From the NCBI RefSeq assembly GCF_051175385.1, contig NZ_CP195106.1, forward strand, positions 1,658,562 through 1,690,561: a stretch of DNA of 32,000 nucleotides, read 5' to 3'. The position numbers were made by a program, and so were the translations under genes. The notes under the pieces were generated by a model. The model had not been told where the DNA came from and made no database searches. It worked only from the letters and a program-made list of their open reading frames with translations. The DNA is from Tundrisphaera lichenicola (GTDB lineage Bacteria > Planctomycetota > Planctomycetia > Isosphaerales > Isosphaeraceae). Below are positions 6,655 to 24,623 of the stretch, in pieces (position 1 is the stretch's first letter; each line of letters starts with the position of its first letter).

Positions 6655-8109
6655 GGGTGTGACCAGGGATTCTTGGGTTTCACGCCGCCCGGTTCCAGAA
6701 TAGGTCCCACTGATCGGTCTGACGGCAGCAGATCAGGGCGGCCATGGCTCGGGCGTTCTTGTGCCGCCAGCGGGCCCCGCGAGCTTTCAGCCTCAGACCC
6801 AGGGTCTTCGCCGCACCCTCCACCACCCCGCTTCCGATCGCATCGCCGGACGCCAGGCGGCCCGCGTAGTCGAGCCGCGTCAGGTGGCCCAGGAAGTAGT
6901 TCAGCAGTCGCTCCAGGGCCCCCCGCCTCTTCGGTGTGTCCTCGCGTTCCAGTTCCTCGCCGATCAGCCGGCAAACTCCCGTCCAACCTTCCCTCAGCAG
7001 TAACTCACGGCCGTGCTCGTGGAACGTGGTCGCCTCGGCTGTCCCTTCGCCAAAGAGCCGCTTGCCGGCGAGGGCGATGTGCTGGCTGGCGTGGTAGATA
7101 TCCAGGGTCTGGCGGCACCCGGTCAGGGCCCGGCCGGCCGCCTTCCAGATCCATGACGCCCCGTCCCCCAGCACGTGCAGCCGGGCCATCGCCGGCAGGC
7201 CCAGCCGCTTCAGCCGCGCGTGCCAGGACCGGCGGAATCGCCGGGATGCCGAGATGTCGGCCCACATCACTCGGGCGGTAGCCTTGGGCAAGACGCGCGA
7301 CTCCCACTGCTGGGGGGTCGCCGGTTTGGCCGTCGGTCGCTTCTGGGCTACGGCGATCTTCAGGTCGCGCCAGCCCTTCTCACGGGTGTTGACCTTGCCG
7401 GCGTCGACGGCGAACTCCCAGCCACCTCCGGCCTTTCCGAAGCCCTCGGCCGAGGCGGTCTCGGTGCCCTGCCAACGCGCGATCCGGCTGGCCTGACGTT
7501 CGCAATAGACCCGCAGGGTCTCGGCCGCCGGCGAGACGCCGAGCAGCTCGAGCAGGTTCTCGCGGGCCCGCTCGAAGGACAGGTCGGCGGCACTACGGCA
7601 GGCCTTGCGTTGCAATCGAGGGCTGAGGCCGCCGTCGAGCCCGAGGACGGTATCGGCGTGATAGCCTCCCGGCACGCAAGGGCATCGCGAGCCCCACCAG
7701 TGCCGCCTCAAGGTGATCGCCCCCAGGCAGGTGAAGACCTCGCGCGTGGCGGTCCCGCGATTCTCGCGAACCTGTCCACAGGAACAGATCCTCAGGGGAG
7801 CCCCTTTTTCTCGGCGTGCTCGAGCCGAGCCCGGACGGCGCGTTGGAGGAGCCGACGCTGGTGCTCGCGACCCTGTTCGATGACGGCCTCCTCGCAGACG
7901 TCGAGGACCGAGCCATCGGGGGTGGTGGCGGCGAGATCCTTCATCTCGCCGACGAAGCCGGCGTAGCCGCGAATCAGATCCTCGTCCTCGGCCTCGATCT
8001 CCAGGGTGATCACCTTCCGTGTCATGGCGGAACTCCGGGTGTCGGGTTCAAGAAGTCCACCCAATTTGCCAGGACGGACGATTCACCACCAGAGAACTTG
8101 GTTACACCC
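6655..8109 (-). mobile_element. ISKra4-family-like insertion sequence, 1455 bp
   Basis: Terminal inverted repeats are GGGTGTGACCAG (6655..6666) and the reverse complement of 8098..8109, GGGTGTAACCAA (10 of 12 match, with weaker similarity further in). A 9-bp direct repeat flanks it. It holds one transposase reading frame pair with the motifs LGDGASWIWK and TLDIYHASQH, which I recognise from ISKra4-type transposases. Confidence 0.8.
6680..8025 (-). pseudogene. ISKra4-like transposase interrupted by a -1 frame change (ORFs 7792..8025 and 6680..~7807)
   Basis: The N-terminal ORF starts at ATG 8025 (MTRKVITLEIE...) and ends ...HAEKKGLP-stop at 7792. The -1 frame reads on as GAPLRICSCGQVRENRGTATREVFTCLGAITLRRHWWGSRCPC..., continuous with the 343-aa ORF 6680..7711. 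The TTG start listed for that ORF is an artefact. A fused product would be about 448 aa. Confidence 0.7.
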
Positions 8110-8805: not shown

Positions 8806-11800
8806 TCAATCCTTCTCGACCCGACAGACAAAAACCTTGGCCTCGTGGATCGTCACGTTGGGATCGCCCACCAGCGCGGCCAAATCATTCACCACGTCGC
8901 CGGTCACGACCCCCTTGTATCCCCAGTGCCAGGGCATCCCGACGTGGTGGATCGGCTTTCCACCGATCAGGAATGGCCGAATCCGGCGAGTGACCAGGGT
9001 CTTGGCCCGGATCGCCGCCCGGGGAGTGATGACCTTCACCCAGTCGAGGTTGGTCACCTTCAGTTCCTCGGCGTGCTCGGGACTGATCTCGACGAAGAGC
9101 TCGGGCTGGAGCGCCGCGAGCCAGGGTAGCCAGCGGCTCATCGAGCCGCTCAGGTGGTGCTCGGTCAATCGATAGGTCGATAGAACTGCCGGGTATTCAC
9201 CCGAACCGGGAGGGGCATAAGGATTTCCCGGGACACTGAAGACCTTGGCCACCGGGTTGCTGGATTGTCCGGGATAGACCAGATTGGCTACCGGCGACTC
9301 GTACGGTTCGTAGTGGGTCGGCAAAGGGCCGTCGACCGTGCCTGAGGGGGCGAAAAGCCATCCTTTTCCGTCGGACTTCATGATGAAGGGCGAGGCTCCA
9401 TCATGGAAATCGAGGCCCTTACCGTCGGGCTGGCGGGGCGTCGTCGGGCCCTTATGCGCCGGAAAATCGGGGATGTCAAGCCCGACCCATCGACCTCGGA
9501 TCTGCTGGTCCGGGTGGCTGGGATCGGGACCTTGCCAGTCCTCGTCCCAGTAGACGTACCCTCTCTCACCCTTCCCGTGGGCCTTGGCGAGTCGGGCCTC
9601 CTTGGGCCATGCGTTACCGAGAGGATCGGCCGAGGCTCGGTTGTACAGAATCCGACGATTGGCGGGCCAGGCGAACCCCCATCCGAGGGCGACCCAGTCG
9701 TCCCCTGCTCGGTTGGCGGCGAAGTTATGGCCCATCGGCTCCTGAGCCGTCGGGGCATACACGCCGGTGTAAATCCATGCCCCGCATGCGGTCGAACCAT
9801 CGGCCTTCAGGTCGCCGAAACTTTTTAAGGGTCGTCCATCGGCCACCGTTGTCCCGTTGATCTCACGAAGCACCCGTCGCGCCGAGGGCTCGTCCTTGAT
9901 TCGCCACTCCGCGTTTTCCTCGGGATCGATGTAGTCCCAGGTCAGGGCCTGGATCGGCCGATCGCGTTCGAGTGTGCTCTCGGCATAGAGCTTCTTGATC
10001 CGGAGGCCGAGATGGACCGTGAACCAGAGGTCGGAACGGGCGTCGACGGGCGGGTCGCAGGCCCGGTCGTGCCACTGGAGAAGACGCTGGGTGTTGGTGT
10101 AGGTACCGTCCATCTCGGCCGTCGCGGCGGCGGGGAGGACGAAGATCTCGGTGGCGATCGACTCCGGTTTTAGTTCACCGGAGTGGACCTCGGGGCTGTC
10201 TTTCCAGAAAGTCGCGGTTTCTGTCTCGTAGAGATCCTTGACCACCATCCAGTCGAGCTTGGCCAGGGCCTTCCGCTGATAGCCGGCATTCTGTCCGCCG
10301 ACGGCGGGGTTCTGCCCCATCGCCATGAACCCCTTGATCTTTCCCTCCGCCATCGCGATGAACATCGGCATGTGCGAGTGGTCGCCGACGATCCTGGGGA
10401 GCCAGTCATAACCCCAATCATTATCCTTGGTCGCGGCCTCTCCATACCAGGCCTTGAGTAGGCTGACGATGAAGTTGGGCAGGTTCGCCCAATAGGAAGT
10501 GGGCGATATCTCCGTTTTGATGTAATCCGCCAGCGATTCGTGGGACTTCAAAGCGCTCGGGATGTTCAGATATCCGGGCAGGAGATTATAGAGCGTGGGG
10601 ATATCGGTCGAGCCCTGGATCGACGCATGCCCCCGGAGCGCCAGGATTCCCCCACCAGGTCGGCCGATGTTACCCAAGAGGAGTTGGACGATCGTCGAGG
10701 CACGAATCATCTGGACGCCCGTGGTGTGCTGGGTCCAGCCGACCGCATAGCATATGACCGAAGTTCGATCTGGCCCAGAAGCCTCGGTGAGCGTCTCCGC
10801 GACTTTCAGGAATGCCTCGATGGGAGTTCCGCAAACGTCCGCGACCATTTCGGGCGTATAGCGGGCGTAGTGACGCCGGAGAATTTGGAAGACGCATCGC
10901 GGATCCTGGAGCGTCGGGTCGGTCCGAGGTGGACTGTTTACCTGGCCGGTTCGGACGCTGAAGGATTGAGTGTCGTCGTTCGCGGGCTTGGGCCGATTCG
11001 AGGGAAACTTCTCCTCGTTTGGCTGGTCGTAGCTCCAGGAGGTTGAATCGTATTGTCGATGTTCCGCATCGAAGCCGGAAAAGAGGCCGTCGAGGTCCTC
11101 GGTATCCTGGTACTTCTCGTTAATCAAGGTCGCTGCGTTGGTGTATTGGACGACGTATTCCTTGAAGTATTTTTCCTCTTCGAGGATGTACCGGATCATG
11201 CCACCCAGGAACACGATGTCGGTCCCCGCCCGGAGCGGCGCGTGGATGTCGGCCATGGCGGAGGTCCGCGTGAATCGGGGGTCTGCGTGGATCAGCTTGG
11301 CCCCATTCATCTTCGCTTGCATGACGAAGCGGAAGCTGACCGGGTGGCACTCGGCCATGTTCGATCCCATGATCAAGACGGCGTCGGCAAATCGGACGTC
11401 CATCTGGTTGGTCGTGGCGCCGCCTCGACCGAGCGAAGTGCCCAGACCGGGCACAGTCGAGCTATGTCAGATTCGGGCCTGATTTTCGAGCCAAATTAGC
11501 CCGAGGGCTCGCCAGAGTTTTAGCTGGACGTAATTCCACTCATTGTCCATCGTCGCTCCGCCGAGCGAAGCAATCGTCGAGCAGTGGTTGACCTTCTTGT
11601 CAACCAGCTTGCCATCCCGATCCGGCCCTTGCCACCGTTCCTGAAACGTGGCGTCGCGGGTCTTCTTCATCAGTTCCGCGATCCGATCCATGGCCCAATC
11701 GAGAGGTTTCTCGGTCCATTCCGTCGCATACGGAGCCCGGTATTTGACCCTGGTCATCCGGTTCGGGTTGACCGCGAGTTGAAAGGTGGCCGACCCCTTT

Positions 11801-12066
11801 GGGCAGAGCGTCCCCCGGCTGATCGGACTATCGGGGTTCCCTTCGATGTTGACGATCTGACCTTCGCGGACGCTGACGATCTGGCCACAGCCGACGGCGC
11901 AATAAGGACAAATGCTGGCGAACTCGCGAGCCCCCTTGAGCTTGGACTTCATTAGCCCCGCAGCGGCCCTCGCCGGCTGTAGGTCGAGTCCAAGCCCCGC
12001 CAGGGAACCGAGGGTCATCCCCGTCCCGCGGAAGAACTGACGGCGGTTAGTTGTGCTCGCATTCAT
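8806..12066 (-). CDS. fdnG: Formate dehydrogenase catalytic (alpha) subunit, FdnG/FdoG type, Tat-exported, selenocysteine-containing (TGA 11467..11469 recoded)
   Basis: ORFs 11467..12159 and 8806..11454 are in the same frame and separated only by TGA plus 4 sense codons. The joined sequence reads ENQARI-U-HSSTVPGLGTSLGRGGATTNQ, the Sec-His active-site context of FdnG-type enzymes. It has a twin-arginine motif NRRQFFRG and an N-terminal 4Fe-4S motif CPYCAVGC. ATG 12066 is preferred as the start; ATG 12159 is possible. Confidence 0.9.
11424..11461 (-). promoter_or_regulatory. SECIS element of the formate dehydrogenase gene
   Basis: The mRNA after the UGA is CAUAGCUCGACUGUGCCCGGUCUGGGCACUUCGCUCGGUCGAG. 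The upper stem is GUGCCC/GGGCAC with apical loop GGUCU. The lower stem is CUCGAC/GUCGAG. Counting U of UGA as 1, the loop G23-U24 fall at the same positions as in the E. coli fdhF SECIS. Confidence 0.85.
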
Positions 12067-12365
12067 GAGTTCATGCCCCGTCGCTCGCAGAAATGGCCCA
12101 ATCTTGCTACGGACCTCCGGATGATTATCCAGCACGGGTGATACTGCTGCCAGATCCATCTGATACGGGCCGACCGCCGGCCAACTAGATCCCCAAAGAA
12201 TCGCCGGGCAGGTTCAAAAACCTGCTTGTTATGGGATCCGACTTCCACAGTGCCCGAGACCTCGTTACAATCCTCTGTTCATTACGAGTCGGCCGAGCGA
12301 AGGACCACCGTGAGTGGTGGCGGTTACTTACTACCGCGAGCCGAGCAGGGGCTCCGAGGATTTCG

Positions 12366-19046: not shown

Positions 19047-20375
19047 TTAGACTTCTTGACCGAGCTTCGCATTCTGCCGATAGGATTCGCTGGTCATGTA
19101 AGTGGGCTCCGGGATCTTTTGCATCGCCAGATCCCTGAGCGAGCCCAGGCGGGCGAGGTCCGGCCAGACCAATCGGACCAGGATGACGATCAGGATTGTG
19201 CCAATGCCGCCACCAACGACCGATCTGATCGGGCCGAAGAAGTGGGCCGTCATCCCCGACTCGAACCCACCCAGCTCATTCGAACAACCGATGAAGATCG
19301 AGTTGACCGCTGCGACCCGGCCTCGCATCGATTCGGGAGTCAGACTCTGAACCAGCGTCGAACGGACTACCACGCTGATGTTGTCGAGGGCTCCGGTCAT
19401 CATGAGCAGGAGAAACGACAAATACGGATTCCTCGAAATCCCGAAGGCGATGGTTGCCGCCCCGAATCCGGCCACAGCCCAGAGCAGGGCCGGCCCGGCT
19501 CGAGGGAGCGGCGGCCGATGAGCTAGGGTCAGGGCCATCATCGCCGCGCCGATCGACGGCGCCGCCCGGAGCCAGCCTAGTCCGACCGGGCCAACTTGGA
19601 GTATATCCTTGGCGAAGATCGGAAGGAGGGCGACGGCCCCCCCCAGGAGGACGGCGAAAAGGTCGAGCGTGATCGTCGCCAGGATCAGCTTGGACTGTCG
19701 GACAAACCGGAGGCCGCCCAGCATCGAGCCGAATGAGGCGGGGCCTTCCAGCCGCTCGATCTGCCTGGGGCGAATCGTCGTGATCAACGCCAGGACCCCG
19801 ATCGAGAGGGCGAGATCGAAGAGATAGACCTCGGTGGCACCTCCAGACTGGGCGATGAACAGGCCCGCCAGCGAAGGTCCCACCACCGAGGCCACTTGCC
19901 AGCCGCTGCTGTTCCACGTCACCGCGCCACCGACCAGGTGATCGGGCACGAGCTGGCGGAGTATCGACCAGCGGGCGGGCATGCTGACTGCATGGGCGAT
20001 CCCGGCCACGACCAACGCGGCATAGATCAAGGGGACCGGCCCTCGCCAGTACGAGAGGGCGGCCAGGACCATCGAGGCGATCGCCATCAACCCCTGCGAG
20101 AGGAGAATCATCCCCTTCCGGCTATGGCGGTCGGCGGCGTGCCCGGCCGGGAGCGCCAGTAGGATGACCGGAAGGACCATCGCCAGGCCCACCAGTCCCA
20201 GGGCCGTGGCCGATCTCGTCCGCTCATAAAGCTCCCAACCGACGGCCACAACCTGCATCTCGGCCCCGGCCGAGGCGAAGATTCCGGCGATCAAAAAGCG
20301 GCGGTAGTCGACCAGCCGGAGAGCTGCATAAGGATCATGAGCGGTCTTCGGGGTGGGGTCTTCGGGGGCGTCCAT
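19047..20375 (-). CDS. MFS transporter
   Basis: 442-aa ORF from ATG 20375 with about 12 predicted TM segments and an MFS-like loop 2-3 region. No substrate can be inferred. Confidence 0.85.
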   Translation of the reverse strand: MDAPEDPTPKTAHDPYAALRLVDYRRFLIAGIFASAGAEMQVVAVGWELYERTRSATALGLVGLAMVLPVILLALPAGHAADRHSRKGMILLSQGLMAIASMVLAALSYWRGPVPLIYAALVVAGIAHAVSMPARWSILRQLVPDHLVGGAVTWNSSGWQVASVVGPSLAGLFIAQSGGATEVYLFDLALSIGVLALITTIRPRQIERLEGPASFGSMLGGLRFVRQSKLILATITLDLFAVLLGGAVALLPIFAKDILQVGPVGLGWLRAAPSIGAAMMALTLAHRPPLPRAGPALLWAVAGFGAATIAFGISRNPYLSFLLLMMTGALDNISVVVRSTLVQSLTPESMRGRVAAVNSIFIGCSNELGGFESGMTAHFFGPIRSVVGGGIGTILIVILVRLVWPDLARLGSLRDLAMQKIPEPTYMTSESYRQNAKLGQEV

Positions 20376-20524
20376 GAAGGCTCGTCAGGGCAGGCTTGGA
20401 ATTATCGGTGGATGTTGTTCTCCAATCATAGGGAAGGGTCAACCGCGATGAGCTCTTTGGGGAGCGGGATCACGGCCCGGTCGAAGCGTGCCCCGCCGAC
20501 TCATCATTCGATCCGAGCCGGAGA

Positions 20525-20552
20525 TTGGCTCCTCTCTCATAGGAAGAGCCAA
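20525..20552 (-). terminator. Stem-loop 10 nt after the stop of the Tat-signal protein gene (end of the selD cluster)
   Basis: Minus-strand RNA UUGGCUCUUC-CUAUGAGA-GAGGAGCCAA forms a 10-bp stem (one G-U pair) with an 8-nt loop. No U tract follows. Confidence 0.45.
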
Positions 20553-20562
20553 ATGCGTGAGA

Positions 20563-21879
20563 TCAAGTCACGGGCGTCTTGATGTAACCGGAGTCGGCCG
20601 GGGCTTGATAGTCCAGAGTGGCCAGTTCGGGAGTTTCAATTCGCTTGCCGCCCTGGACCCGGCTTTCGAGGAGGGCGTCGAGAGCTCCTCCGGTCAGGAC
20701 AGTCCGGGTCACGGGGTAGGGGGGGCTACTGGTCCGGAAGAAGTCTTCGATCCGGAGGACGAGCGGGTCGAAGAAGCGGGCACCGGGAGGAGCGGGTAGA
20801 TACAGGAGCGTTGAAACGACCGGGTCTTCCGCCCGGTCGATCCGTGCGGCGACCGAGGTGTCGTCGACCTGACCGTTGAGGATCAGGACGGTCCCTCGGA
20901 ATCCATCAGCGTATTCGACGAGGAATGCGATGGGAGTGCTGAGGAATGATGGCCGGTTTGGTGGCGGGACGAAATCGCGAGTGTTGTCCTGGGGAGCACC
21001 CGGGTTGCAGGTGTGGCTTTTCGAGAGCGCGGCCTTCATCAAATCTTCCGACCAGAGACCTCGCTTCGAGGCGTCCCAGACGGCGTCCCCTTCGAGACAG
21101 GTGACGGCGACAATCCCCTGTGGTTTCCCCTCCCGATTGCGCCGCTCGACCATGCACTGGAGCGATTCGAGGGCATGGAAGCCGAAGATCTCGATCTCTC
21201 CTCGAGAGACGACCAGGGCTTCTTTCCAGTCCAGGCCCAGCGGAACTTCCAGATTCGGCAGTCGCCAGGTGACCGGAAGACTGGATCCGGCCATCAGGGG
21301 AATTCGGAGCTTGCCTGCTGTCTCGATCATCCGTCGGGCCTCGGCCCGGTCGTAGGAGAGATGCTTGTCGATGAAGACGGGGACGCTTCTACCCGAACTT
21401 CCGAAAACGTCCGCGACTTCCTTGAAGAATCGGGCGCGTGGGTAGAGCTTCTGGAGTTTCTCATTGAAGGGATATTCGCCGTGTTCGGCGATCAAGAGGA
21501 CCCCGTCGACGGCCAGTTTGCCGGTCCCCAGAGTCAGGGCGTCGGCGATCGTCGGGCTGTTCCTCACCTCATGCTTGGCGGCCTTGGCCCGGCCCAGGTC
21601 ATTGGAAGGAGTTTGCTCGATGAAGAGACTGGCGATCTCGAAGTCGGGGTGGTGCAAGCCTTTGCCGTCGTGAGCGTCGAACCCGTCCAGGAACCGACCG
21701 ACGATGTGGTAGGCGTGTGAGAGGTAATGGTAGGCGGTCGTAACGGCGGCTATCCTGGGCTTGGGACCGAACGGTGGATCGACCTGAGCCCTCGACACTT
21801 CTGGCCTGTTGGCGATCAGGCTGCTGGCTGCCAGGGCTCCGGCTGTCCCCAGGAAATCTCTCCTCGAAGGTCCGGTCAT
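20563..21879 (-). CDS. Tat-signal protein of unknown function (438 aa)
   Basis: ATG 21879 has AGAGGA 6 nt upstream; TTG 21885 is an alternative start. The N-terminus MTGPSRRDFLGTAGALAASSL has a twin-arginine motif. The N-terminal segment RIAAVTTAYHYLSHAYHI loosely resembles a degenerate Rossmann start, but no GxGxxG or metal or cofactor Cys/His cluster is recognisable. Confidence 0.85.
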   Translation of the reverse strand: MTGPSRRDFLGTAGALAASSLIANRPEVSRAQVDPPFGPKPRIAAVTTAYHYLSHAYHIVGRFLDGFDAHDGKGLHHPDFEIASLFIEQTPSNDLGRAKAAKHEVRNSPTIADALTLGTGKLAVDGVLLIAEHGEYPFNEKLQKLYPRARFFKEVADVFGSSGRSVPVFIDKHLSYDRAEARRMIETAGKLRIPLMAGSSLPVTWRLPNLEVPLGLDWKEALVVSRGEIEIFGFHALESLQCMVERRNREGKPQGIVAVTCLEGDAVWDASKRGLWSEDLMKAALSKSHTCNPGAPQDNTRDFVPPPNRPSFLSTPIAFLVEYADGFRGTVLILNGQVDDTSVAARIDRAEDPVVSTLLYLPAPPGARFFDPLVLRIEDFFRTSSPPYPVTRTVLTGGALDALLESRVQGGKRIETPELATLDYQAPADSGYIKTPVT

Positions 21880-21902
21880 GAGCAATCCTCTCCGTTGGGC
21901 AA

Positions 21903-22961
21903 TCAGCGGGCAATCAGCGCGATCGTCCCCTGACGTTCGAGTATCCGACCGACGACAGCCGAGGCACTCGCCCCCCGAGCCTGGAGTTCTGCGATCAGTC
22001 GCGCGACGTGGTCGGGGTGTATTGCGATCAGAAGCCCGCCGGACGTCTGTGCATCGAACAGATATTCGACCCGCAGCGCATCGGCACTCGGCTCGATCAG
22101 GAGTCGTTCGCCGACGAATTCGCGGTTCGACTTGGTGGCACGCGTGAAGAACCCGGCAGCGGCCAGCGCCTCGGTGCCTTCGATCAGGGGGAGTTGATCG
22201 AGATTCAGCTCGATCGTCCTCACCGATCCATCGGCCATTTCCAGGGCGTGACCTGCCAGCCCGAAGCCGGTGATGTCGGTGACGGCCGACACGCCCCCGG
22301 CTTGGCGCATCGCGTCGCGACCGATCGCGTTGAGCTGGATCATCGAGGCGATCGCTCGATCGAGGACATTCGGCGGGCAGGTGGCTTTCTTGTTAGCGGT
22401 GGTGGCGAACCCGGTCCCCAAGGGCTTGGTGAGGACCAGCGAATCCCCGGGTCGAGCCGAGGCGTTGGTCATGATCGAGGCCGGGTCGATCAGTCCGGTC
22501 ACGCTCAAGCCGTACTTGATCTCGGCGTCACGGACCGAGTGCCCGCCCATCGTCACCGCCCCGGCCAGGGCCACCTGAGAGGCTCCCCCGCGGAGGATCT
22601 CGCCGAGGATCGAGAGCGGAAGTTCGTTGTCGGGGAACCCCACGATGTTCAGGGCGGTGATCGGCCGGGCGTTCATGGCATAGAGGTCGGAGAGTGCGTT
22701 CGCGGCGGCAATCTGGCCGAATAGATACGGATCGTCCACCAGCGGCGGGAAGAAGTCGAGCGTCTGTACCATCGCCAGGCCATCGGCCACGAGGTAGACG
22801 CCCGCATCATCCGACGTCTCCGTCCCGACCAGGAGTCGGGGATCGGAGGCACGAGGCGGCAAATCACGCAAGACCTGCGCGAGCCCTCCCGGGGCGAGCT
22901 TGCCGGCTCACCCCGCGCAGTTGGCATAGTCGGTCAGGCGTTTCATCCGGCCGGTCGACAC
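21903..22961 (-). CDS. selD: Selenide, water dikinase (selenophosphate synthetase) SelD, selenocysteine-containing (TGA 22908..22910 recoded)
   Basis: The body ORF 21903..22871 carries the motifs LVGTETSDDAGVY, TLDFFPPLVDDPYLFGQIAAANALSDLYAM and LTKPLGTG. The in-frame upstream sequence reads (V)STGRMKRLTDYANCAG-U-AGKLAPGGLAQVL. The TGA sits at the position of the catalytic Cys17 in E. coli SelD (GAGCGCK). GTG 22961 has AAGAGG 6 nt upstream; ATG 22946 is an alternative start. Confidence 0.9.
22865..22881 (-). promoter_or_regulatory. Candidate SECIS hairpin of selD
   Basis: mRNA CGCGCA-GGUCU-UGCGUG forms a 6-bp stem (one G-U pair) with the same GGUCU apical loop as the fdh SECIS. The loop starts 36 nt from the U of UGA. 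A nearer hairpin GCCC-CGGGA-GGGC is an alternative. Confidence 0.6.
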
Positions 22962-22987
22962 GAGGGACCTCTTCTTGGCAGTCGGCT

Positions 22988-23227
22988 TCAGACACCCAGG
23001 ATCTCGCCGACCGCTCGGATCATCTCGGCCTCTTCCGGGAACATCCCGGATTTCAGTTTGGAGTAGACTAGTTTTCCGCCGACCGTCAACTCGAAGCAAC
23101 CCCCCTTCGATGGGATCAGCTCATATCGACGTATCGCTCGCTTGAACTTCGGGAGCAGCTTGGCCGTCAAACTGACGGCCTGTGGTTCGTAGTTTCAGAG
23201 GGCGCAGTATTCCAGGGTCAGATCCAT
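22988..23227 (-). CDS. Rdx-family (SelW/SelT-like) thioredoxin-fold selenoprotein, CxxU motif (TGA 23195..23197 recoded)
   Basis: ATG 23227 has AGGAG 8 nt upstream. The conceptual product is MDLTLEYCAL-U-NYEPQAVSLTAKLLPKFKRAIRRYELIPSKGGCFELTVGGKLVYSKLKSGMFPEEAEMIRAVGEILGV. This matches the Rdx pattern: EYCxxU, xYxxxAxxL, IPSxGGxFE and SKxxxGxFPE. The ORF track shows only the C-terminal 60 aa (22988..23170, false TTG start). The N-terminal 10 codons appear there as the tail of the spurious ORF 23195..23965. Confidence 0.85.
23162..23180 (-). promoter_or_regulatory. Candidate SECIS hairpin of the Rdx gene
   Basis: mRNA GGCCGUC-AGUUU-GACGGCC forms a perfect 7-bp stem beginning 17 nt after the U of UGA. 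The loop contains GU at positions 26-27. Confidence 0.65.
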
Positions 23228-23301
23228 CGGAGATTGGCTCCTGAAATTACAGGGAAGATCGAGTTCGAGGACTACAATGGTGATCGAAGGCCCAGGAAGG
23301 G

Positions 23302-24432
23302 TCAAGGCCCGCTGTGGACGTCGATGATGTCGATATCGGCCCTGGGAAGGGGAGGCGGTTGCCAGTCGCGACTCATCAGGTCGGCCCATCGGTAAAGCTC
23401 GGGCACGTTCTGGCAGACCAGCTTCAAACAAGCCGTCATCGGCATGGCCAGGATCAGCCCGACGAGTCCCCAGAGGAAACCCCAGAACAGGCAGGCGACC
23501 AGGATGATCGTACCGTTCAGATCGAGTGATTTCCCGAGGACATATGGGGTCACGATATATCCCTCGATCGTGACCAGTCCCAGGTAGACCGAGGCAACGA
23601 TCAAGGTGTCGCCTACCGACTCGAACTGGGCGAGCGTCACCAGTGAGGCCAAACCTCCTCCCAGGAGCTGCCCCACATAGGGGACGAAGTTGGTCAGTCC
23701 CGCGAATAGCCCGAGTGCGATCGGGAATCGGACCTTGAAGATCCAGAGGAAGCAGGCGAAGACGACACCCAGTCCCAGGTTGATTAGCGTCCGGGCCAGC
23801 AAGAATGAACGGATCTGTCGGGTCAGATCCTTGAGCGTTCTCTCGGAGGCTGCGGCGTCCCCCGGCGTCCTGGCGAAGAAGCGGACCACCTTGGGCGTTA
23901 ACATCTCGCTCTCGGCCAGGAGGAACAATACGAGTATCAGGACGATCAGCCCCTGAGCCACCCACCCCGAGAGATCGGCCAGGCCATAAGTCAATGTTTC
24001 GTAGAGTAATGCGCTGTTTCGGTCGCCGAGTTTGTCGATCGTACCTGGTTCGGGAAGGATGAATCGCAGATACGGCCGGTCGCGAAGGATCTCGGAGACA
24101 TATCGGCTCGCCTGGCCCGCGATCCGGGCGATGTCGCCCGGTAAGCTGGCCGTGGCCTGCACCAAACCTTCAGCGGTGAGAGTGGCGAGATAAAGGCCGA
24201 GGAGCAAAGCTAGGAGGAAGAGTACCGCCGCCGACCCGGTCGGGCTCAAGCGGAGGATTCGCCGGAGAAAGGTGGTGGCGGGCGAGAGTAATGAGGCCAG
24301 GAAGACAGCCAGGGTGATCGGAATCAAAATCGCCTTCATCAGATAGAGAGCGGCGATCGTGGCGAAGACGGCCAGGGTCACGAGAGAGGCGGTGCGATAA
24401 GACTTGCCGCTATCCTCCATCCGAACCACCAT
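23302..24432 (-). CDS. AI-2E family transporter (PerM/YhhT-like, UPF0118)
   Basis: 376-aa ORF from ATG 24432. It has multiple TM helices and the C-terminal half pattern LNFVPYVGQLLGG...G...LILAMP typical of the AI-2E family. Confidence 0.85.
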   Translation of the reverse strand: MVVRMEDSGKSYRTASLVTLAVFATIAALYLMKAILIPITLAVFLASLLSPATTFLRRILRLSPTGSAAVLFLLALLLGLYLATLTAEGLVQATASLPGDIARIAGQASRYVSEILRDRPYLRFILPEPGTIDKLGDRNSALLYETLTYGLADLSGWVAQGLIVLILVLFLLAESEMLTPKVVRFFARTPGDAAASERTLKDLTRQIRSFLLARTLINLGLGVVFACFLWIFKVRFPIALGLFAGLTNFVPYVGQLLGGGLASLVTLAQFESVGDTLIVASVYLGLVTIEGYIVTPYVLGKSLDLNGTIILVACLFWGFLWGLVGLILAMPMTACLKLVCQNVPELYRWADLMSRDWQPPPLPRADIDIIDVHSGP

Positions 24433-24623
24433 GCGGTCGCCCCCTCGCTCCTAAATCATCGATGATCGCAGTCGAGGAGGATCATCGCAAGGGCCGCGTT
24501 CAGGAGGCTTTGTGTGAATGGGAAAAATGGGAGGTTCGTTTATCATGGAAAATGCGTTGCGAACCTGCCTAGAATTGAGAGGGATGCTCAAGTCGATCGC
24601 CGTTCGAGAGGGGAGAACTTGCC

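Follow-up and report, generated by a model that had tools for sequence, protein, structure and literature searches.

The window analysed here is the whole 32,000-nucleotide stretch of the Tundrisphaera lichenicola contig NZ_CP195106.1, and within it we looked specifically at a run of four co-directional minus-strand genes that includes selD. The listing of open reading frames (ORFs) and their translations place these genes in the order AI-2E permease, Rdx, selD and a gene for a 438-aa protein with a twin-arginine translocation (Tat) signal, here called tat438 (Table 1). The initial annotation of this DNA had reported these four genes, two of them encoding selenoproteins, and had hypothesised from their adjacency that the permease and the exported protein take part in selenium uptake, reduction or delivery. 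According to the ORF list, the translations and the Pfam/NCBIfam scans, all four genes are present where it had placed them, and the spacers are likewise as it had given them, namely 74 nt, then 41 or 26 nt depending on the selD start, and then 23 nt.

Table 1. Coordinates of the four genes, their neighbour and the associated RNA and DNA structures in the window (SECIS, selenocysteine insertion sequence; Sec, selenocysteine)
Feature	Position	Strand	Match or structure
AI-2E permease, 376 aa, first gene of the run	23302..24432	-	PF01594, E=3.3e-43
Rdx / SelW-like selenoprotein, 79 aa, motif C-A-L-U	22988..23227	-	PF10262, E=7.5e-18
SECIS-type hairpin of Rdx, GGCCGUCA-GUU-UGACGGCC	23162..23180	-	begins 15 nt past UGA
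selD, Sec form	21903..22961 (GTG, preferred) or 21903..22946 (ATG)	-	TIGR00476, 371.8 bits
SECIS-type hairpin of selD, UCGCGCAG-GUC-UUGCGUGA	22864..22882	-	begins ~26 nt past UGA
tat438, 438-aa Tat-signal protein	20563..21879	-	TIGR01409, 20.7 bits (cutoff 16.7)
MFS_3 transporter, co-directional	19047..20375	-	PF05977, E=1.8e-37
Stem-loop 3' of tat438, 10 nt past the stop	20525..20552	-	arms 20525-20534 / 20543-20552, 10 nt, one mismatch
Inverted repeat in the permease leader, 8 bp	24460..24487	-	arms 24460-24467 / 24480-24487

Selenoprotein genes and transcription of the cluster

Rdx and selD are well-supported selenoprotein genes, as had been claimed for them, for each carries an in-frame UGA that is aligned in orthologues and is followed 15-30 nt downstream by a conserved hairpin. 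SelD passes the equivalog cutoffs of TIGR00476 (371.8 bits against 125) and NF002098 (333.7 against 299) and has AIRS and AIRS_C domains. Its Sec codon lies at 22910..22908 in the motif CAG-U-AGK, with Lys three residues after Sec. The column of this codon holds U in most orthologues and C in those of loci L019, L032, L033, L116 and L118, and in the related loci the sequence is conserved before as well as after the aligned UGA or Cys codons. The 8-pair helix of the selD hairpin is kept in 15 Sec-type selD genes, with compensatory changes at 4 pairs of the alignment, whereas the Cys-type selD genes of L032, L033 and L019 lack its sequence. As the start of the gene, GTG at 22961 (26-nt spacer) is preferred over ATG at 22946 because AAGAGG, which resembles a Shine-Dalgarno sequence, stands 7-8 nt upstream of it and the N-terminus MSTGRMKRL which it yields aligns with MTTESTKRL of L032.

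Rdx matches PF10262 (64.9 bits against 22.6) and TIGR02174 (61.7 against 34.2), and by its family membership it would be a thioredoxin-fold CxxU redox protein. Its UGA at 23197..23195, in the motif YCALU near the N-terminus, is aligned in 8 orthologues, while the hairpin that follows, with 7-8 pairs and a GUU loop, is kept in 9 genes and shows compensatory changes at 4 of 7 pairs. No family, SECIS models included, was matched in an Rfam gathering scan of the window.

Cys-type SelD was observed in L032, L033, L118, L119, L120, L019 and L116, and five of these seven loci are also without Rdx. In Aquisphaera insulae (L116) the Cys-type SelD occurs together with a Sec-containing Rdx. That the Cys-type SelD of L032 and L033 might be a separate paralogue was considered and rejected, as the proteins are 74-75% identical orthologues, and only the selD of L004 is xenologous. 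In Tautonia sociabilis GM2012 (L007, 8391..8621) Rdx keeps its UGA, and the motif Cys is replaced by Arg (D-R-A-L-U) and the conserved second Cys by Asn (GGNFE); the gene could be decaying, or these could be sequencing errors.

Apart from these, the window holds a third selenoprotein gene 9 kb from the cluster, which the initial annotation had missed. This is FdhA (8806..12159, minus strand), a molybdopterin oxidoreductase with Fe4S4, Molybdopterin and Molydop_binding domains whose gene an in-frame TGA divides into two ORFs. Its UGA lies at 11469..11467 in the motif NQARI-U-HSSTVPGLG, the classic Sec site of formate dehydrogenase alpha. SelD produces selenophosphate, from which Sec-tRNA synthesis draws its selenium, and the selenophosphate made here would serve SelD itself, Rdx and the Sec-containing FdhA, which is likely to be its main client. 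Between an MMPL gene and fdhA lies a 343-aa ORF (6680..7711, minus strand) with only a weak UPF0236 (transposase-like) match.

Known partners of selD had been reported as absent from the window, and this agrees with our scan, in which the window's large ORFs showed no domain of the selA, selB, selU or yedE type, small ORFs not having been scanned exhaustively. The window has no tRNA genes either, and tRNA-Sec was not found near the cluster in any of 24 loci.

The cluster is probably co-transcribed, and all four genes would be transcribed from one promoter within the 191-nt divergent region 5' of the permease. A consensus scan, planctomycete promoter types excluded, found neither a promoter nor a terminator between the genes on the coding strand of the window. 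In Tautonia sp. JC769 selD and tat438 are separated by ~380 nt (L005, 9460..9840), and within this spacer lies a long inverted repeat rich in GC, GGTTCCGCGCTGCGGACCCCGGGCC ... GCCCGGGGTCCGCCGCGCGGAACC, which could act as a terminator after selD in this species.

The two hairpins that had been said to bracket the cluster both exist, but their folding energies are unremarkable (z=-1.0 for the stem-loop after tat438 and z=-0.7 for the repeat in the permease leader) and neither is accompanied by a U-tract. The stem-loop after tat438 is not a canonical terminator, and the leader repeat was rejected as an operator, since it is not conserved in five relatives.

Besides, an exact 14-nt direct repeat, AGGAGCCAATCTCC, occurs on the minus strand at 20520..20533 and 23229..23242, where one copy stops two bases short of the Rdx start codon and the other supplies the 3' arm of the stem-loop that follows tat438. 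These two matches compare with 0.04 expected for a word that was picked after being seen. As a shared signal the repeat was rejected, for none of 120 related loci carries it, and we regard it as due to chance or specific to the window.

The MFS_3 gene, which had also been overlooked, starts 187 nt downstream of tat438 and is syntenic in the closest relatives. It adjoins tat438 in L001, L032 and L118, and it adjoins selD in L117, where tat438 is missing.

The exported protein and the membrane proteins beside it

The Tat signal of tat438 has a twin-arginine motif (S-R-R-D-F-L), a hydrophobic region (GTAGALAASSLIA) and an AxA-like cleavage site (SRA-Q). It exceeds the cutoff of TIGR01409 and, with 18.2 bits, stays below the 22.7 cutoff of Pfam TAT_signal; an RR signal motif is found at the start of most distant homologues as well. 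Beyond this signal no Pfam or NCBIfam family was matched. The relatives of the protein are numerous, with at least 7,850 close ones in the database, all unnamed, and 2,414 clusters at 50% identity.

The initial annotation could place this protein in no family, a verdict now superseded by an AlphaFold model built from 49 sequences (pLDDT 86, pTM 0.85). The model has the Rossmann-type N-domain and the alpha/beta C-domain of the Gfo/Idh/MocA oxidoreductases, and Foldseek matched it to more than 50 structures of this family with probability 1.00 (E=2e-12 to 5e-10), such as GenD2, the glucose-fructose oxidoreductase (GFOR) of Zymomonas, inositol dehydrogenases, WlbA and GH109. Against solved structures the identity is 10-14% and the TM-scores are 0.5-0.65. 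The tat438 profile weakly matches the strand of Gfo/Idh/MocA structures that bears the EKP motif (E=0.13-1.7, 45 residues only), and this weak match would align D171-K172-H173 with the EKP of 3moi and 6z3b. Invariant throughout the family are S54, H55, D94, D125, E132, H133, G134, D171, K172, H235, E238 and R247, and these residues are common to homologues with selD-free neighbourhoods from Acidobacteriota, Verrucomicrobiota, Pirellulales, Bacteroidota and Armatimonadota. Instead of a GxGxxG dinucleotide loop, strand 42-47 is followed by TTAYHYLSH, in which Y50, S54 and H55 are invariant and no Gly occurs.

On the strength of the model, tat438 is best regarded as belonging to a sequence family of its own, so far uncharacterised, that shares the Gfo/Idh/MocA-type fold. 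It is most likely an exported, cofactor-carrying periplasmic oxidoreductase of a sugar-like substrate, because of its predicted fold, the catalytic positions that K172 and H235 would occupy, a Tat export like that of GFOR and the fusion of family members to sugar-oxidation domains. The fusions found involve glucose/sorbosone dehydrogenase (GSDH) with cytochrome c, 3-keto-disaccharide hydrolase, NAD epimerase and esterase. The chemistry of the family is presumably alike in selD-linked and unlinked members. Cys-based selenium chemistry was rejected for tat438, because no Cys is conserved across the family and C242 and C261 are not conserved even within the selD-linked loci.

The permease matches PF01594 over residues 19-341 (148.6 bits against 34.3) and falls far below all NCBIfam equivalog cutoffs (101 against 318, 71 against 675 and 58 against 198); therefore no substrate is assignable to it. 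Its orthologues stand by selD in 13 loci, and in L001 and L018 they stand by tat438 where selD is gone. As these two are still 79-84% identical to the permease of the window, they argue against an obligate link of the permease with selenium.

In the second clade of tat438 loci, clade B (L008-L015), a small protein of ~85-95 aa with two predicted membrane helices was observed (L008 9721..10008, L009 9610..9897, L014 9747..10013), with the motif LPARAW..F..T....LIDGPML..VA.SSLI.ATYR. It is encoded directly 5' of tat438 in 8 of 8 clade-B loci, whether selD is present or not, and has no homologue in the window.

Linkage across loci and its interpretation

Scanning one genome for each GTDB species yielded 31 tat438 loci, to which look-ups of database homologues added more, and a SelD-profile scan of metagenomes gave 80 diverse selD loci (43-70% identity). 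All tat438 loci were searched by tblastn with the proteins of the window, and the arrangements found there and around close SelD homologues are listed in Table 2.

Table 2. Gene arrangements at loci with tat438 or a close selD (U, Sec; C, Cys; perm, permease)
Arrangement	Loci
perm-Rdx(U)-SelD(U)-tat438	window, L005 (Tautonia sp. JC769), L007 (T. sociabilis), L006 (metagenome-assembled genome)
other membrane protein-Rdx(U)-SelD(U)-tat438	L002
perm-SelD(U)-tat438	L003
perm-SelD(C)-tat438	L019, L032, L033, L118, L120
perm, 5.3-kb insert, SelD(C)-tat438	L119
perm-peroxiredoxin-xenologous SelD(C)-tat438	L004
SelD-tat438, contig cut	L016
SelD(U)-small 2-helix protein-tat438	L008, L009, L014
small 2-helix protein-tat438, without selD	L010-L013, L015
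perm-tat438, without Rdx or selD, 26-41 nt gap	L001, L018
tat438 alone	L114 (Singulisphaera sp. PoT), L115 (Singulisphaera)
perm-Rdx(U)-SelD(C)-TPR protein	L116 (Aquisphaera insulae)
MlaD-perm-Rdx(U)-SelD(U)-MFS, the synteny of the window minus tat438	L117

The neighbourhood described from the window is conserved in related genomes, with selD and tat438 kept together in 17 loci and the four-gene order kept in L005, L007 and L006. In 9 further loci tat438 has no selD beside it, which amounts to at least 4 separate losses of selD. L001 and L018 are among the closest relatives recovered; they share the flanking synteny of the window, and Rdx and selD are cleanly absent from them. In a neighbour-joining tree all selD-linked loci fall into one clade with the losses nested inside, L001 and L018 standing among selD-bearing sisters. 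Look-ups of close SelD homologues gave two loci with selD and no tat438 (L116, L117). The match lists of tat438 and SelD have 28 of 90 contigs in common, an underestimate because the three unpaired hits that were looked up on long contigs (P0005, P0014 and P0019) all proved to be selD-linked.

Outside the family, tblastn found selD within 10 kb of none of 13 distant tat438 homologues, drawn from Terriglobia, Bryobacteraceae, Verrucomicrobiales, Pirellulales, Armatimonadota, Sphingobacterium, Gemmataceae and Myxococcales records. In a Pfam tally of 100 neighbour ORFs around 16 selD-less tat438 loci, including these 13, none of the 25 families listed is recurrent or related to selenium. Neither the permease nor tat438 was found in any of the 80 diverse selD loci. 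Rdx was found in 4 of them, two being close relatives on short contigs and two the low-GC loci L046 and L050, and it adjoins selD in 9 loci of the Isosphaeraceae-like family. Of the linkages seen in the window, only that of Rdx recurs in independent lineages (L046, L050), and not that of the permease or of tat438.

In L046 (639..2060) and L050 (3965..5371), metagenome contigs of 39-41% GC, a Sec-type Rdx is divergently adjacent to a Sec-type selD and both genes have SECIS-type hairpins, which makes this an independent Rdx-selD pairing outside the planctomycetes. The recurrent place of Rdx beside selD, also in this unrelated low-GC lineage, suggests that Rdx may act in a redox or selenium hand-off towards SelD.

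With a modest degree of confidence we regard the run of genes as a lineage-specific cluster of an Isosphaeraceae-like planctomycete, whose demonstrable selenium content is the Sec-containing pair Rdx-SelD and whose flanking genes are long-standing neighbours with functions of their own. The adjacency of selD with tat438 and the permease is real and selected for within one lineage, with tat438 beside selD in 17 loci and the permease beside it in 13, and no linkage is seen outside the family. The comparison of loci suggests that the permease and tat438 are not obligate selenium genes, such a role being unlikely for either. The selenium role that the initial annotation had hypothesised for them is partly supported, for the neighbourhood is conserved within one family, but each flanker also occurs without selD at its locus. 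The permease-tat438 pair of L001 and L018, the solitary tat438 of L114 and L115, the five clade-B loci without selD and the tat438-less L116 and L117 all run counter to that proposal at the level of the locus, where tat438 and the permease are not lost with selD and stay where it is gone.

Several properties of the adjacency nevertheless weigh against the view that the flankers are neighbours only. The selD-tat438 pair is found in 17 Isosphaeraceae-like loci with a tat438 identity of 58-77% and in at least 4 flanking contexts, with MlaD-HEAT-permease, GH32, an AhpC/cytochrome c/EF-hand protein or an NAD-epimerase region upstream and MFS, PurD, a VWA protein or a polysaccharide exporter downstream, and it outlasts all the adjacencies that surround it. 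The two genes are 23-35 nt apart in the group of the window and overlap by 4 nt in L004, and in L014 ATGA stop/start overlaps join selD, the small 2-helix protein and tat438. The slot between the permease and tat438 in L004 (8400..9953) holds a bona fide SelD (TIGR00476, 377 bits) that is 42% identical to that of the window and 55-56% identical to SelDs of other lineages, preceded by a Bcp/AhpC-type peroxiredoxin ORF in place of Rdx. This selD looks like a xenologous replacement or a re-insertion at the same site, and simple inheritance does not explain a foreign gene in that slot. A membrane protein is paired with selD-tat438 in both clades, the AI-2E permease in one and the 2-helix protein in the other, and operon partners are usually functionally related.

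A selenium role for one or both flankers could take three forms, which jointly have a substantial but clearly minor share of the probability. All four genes might constitute one selenium acquisition module, in which tat438 would process a periplasmic selenium compound, the permease would import it, Rdx would hand it on and SelD would phosphorylate it. Consistent with this, the four-gene order is kept in the window, in two Tautonia species and in L006 despite differing flanks, the spacers are tight, the consensus scan found no internal terminators, and prokaryotes have, according to a 2026 review (PMC13188914), no known transporter that is specific for selenium and of high affinity. However, each flanker is separately dispensable (L001, L018, L114, L115, L116, L117, L119, L002 and clade B), there is no linkage outside the family (0/80 selD loci, 0/13 distant tat438 loci), the active-site residues of tat438 are common to unlinked homologues with no Cys or Sec conserved, and the permease remains 79-84% identical to that of the window where selD is gone, so that we consider a single module unlikely. 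A dedicated Isosphaeraceae operon for selenium acquisition, leading from a Tat-exported enzyme of Gfo/Idh/MocA fold through a clade-specific membrane partner (AI-2E permease or 2-helix protein) to Rdx and SelD, seems to us rather improbable; if true, it would mean that bacteria have a specific route for taking up and delivering selenium that bears no relation to YedE/YedF or the sulfate/phosphate transporters.

The coupling might instead be limited to selD and tat438, the membrane partner varying by clade and the permease being incidental, in which case tat438 would be a periplasmic redox enzyme with a product that feeds the selenide supply, or the expression of tat438 would depend on selenium via the upstream UGA genes. 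This is the deepest and tightest of the adjacencies (17 loci, two deep clades, ATGA overlaps), a xenologous selD re-occupies the same slot in L004, and the pair stays tight in L119 although the permease lies 5.3 kb off. Yet at least 4 independent losses of selD leave tat438, or its pair with the small 2-helix protein, intact, two loci have selD and a Sec-type Rdx without tat438, the long inverted repeat in the ~380-nt gap parts the two genes in Tautonia sp. JC769, and distant tat438 homologues are never linked to selD. A coupling of this kind is thus also unlikely. Conversely, the permease, Rdx and SelD might form a three-gene unit of selenium import and delivery with tat438 incidental to it, as the permease adjoins selD, with or without Rdx between them, in 13 loci that include the tat438-less Aquisphaera insulae and L117, and overlaps selD by 4 nt in L033. 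The chances of this are slim, for the permease is retained, highly conserved and adjoining tat438 where Rdx and selD are deleted (L001, L018), an unrelated membrane protein replaces it in L002, neither clade B nor any of the 80 diverse selD loci has it, and it is syntenic with the upstream HEAT gene in Aquisphaera also.

Comparison with known selenium systems and protein families

Sec-containing SelD is among the most common bacterial selenoproteins, SelW-like Rdx is a known bacterial selenoprotein family, and SelD, SelW-like protein and FdhA make up a classic small bacterial selenoproteome (PMC1794560). The SelD of the window resembles the Sec-type SelD of TIGR00476 over its full length, with Sec in place of the catalytic Cys of the Gly-rich N-terminal loop and a SECIS downstream, and differs in nothing essential. 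Its Rdx resembles the SelW-like proteins in the CxxU near the N-terminus, the thioredoxin fold of ~79 aa and the SECIS hairpin, although it stays below the cutoff of the SelTWH_Campy equivalog (78 against 88 bits). The recurrent position of Rdx directly 5' of selD is not described in the literature examined.

Like the AI-2E transporters TqsA, YdiK, PerM and CxpE (PF01594), the permease is a full-length member of the family, though below every curated subfamily cutoff, and a literature search for a link of AI-2E proteins with selenium or selenophosphate synthetase gave nothing relevant. The same was true of a search for Isosphaeraceae with selenocysteine, and no published selenium literature was found for the phylum.

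Among characterised enzymes, tat438 can be compared with the GFOR of Zymomonas mobilis (PDB 1h6d, 1ofg), which it resembles in the predicted two-domain fold (Foldseek E ~1e-11) and in the twin-arginine signal that both proteins bear; the Lys of D171-K172-H173, which the conserved His235 follows, would align with the EKP motif. GFOR is exported with bound NADP. From the Gfo/Idh/MocA proteins in general tat438 differs in having no match to Pfam GFO_IDH_MocA and in the replacement of the GxGxxG loop by the invariant T-A-Y-H-Y-L-S-H.

A permease and an exported redox-fold protein beside selD are the kind of lead that could help to explain how selenium is specifically taken up by bacteria and reaches SelD, and the foreign selD in the same slot of L004 makes the arrangement more than trivial synteny. 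Two facts limit the claim, namely that no linkage is seen beyond a single planctomycete family and that either flanker survives without selD at the locus. What stands apart from it are two SECIS-bearing selenoprotein genes and a Sec-type FdhA in a planctomycete, the recurrent pairing of Rdx with selD, and the model-based placing of an unnamed, mostly Tat-exported family of ~2,400 clusters in the Gfo/Idh/MocA fold.

The published sets of selD-linked genes comprise selA/selB, ybbB (selU), an NADH-oxidoreductase fusion, SirA-like/HP1/HP2 and YedE/YedF. The cluster of the window is without those partners, and an AI-2E or Gfo-like partner of selD is listed in neither of two comparative studies (PMC2432076, PMC5322559). 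It differs from these sets also in that its linkage is confined to one family, and it is like them in being centred on selD and in having its partners proposed from the neighbourhood.

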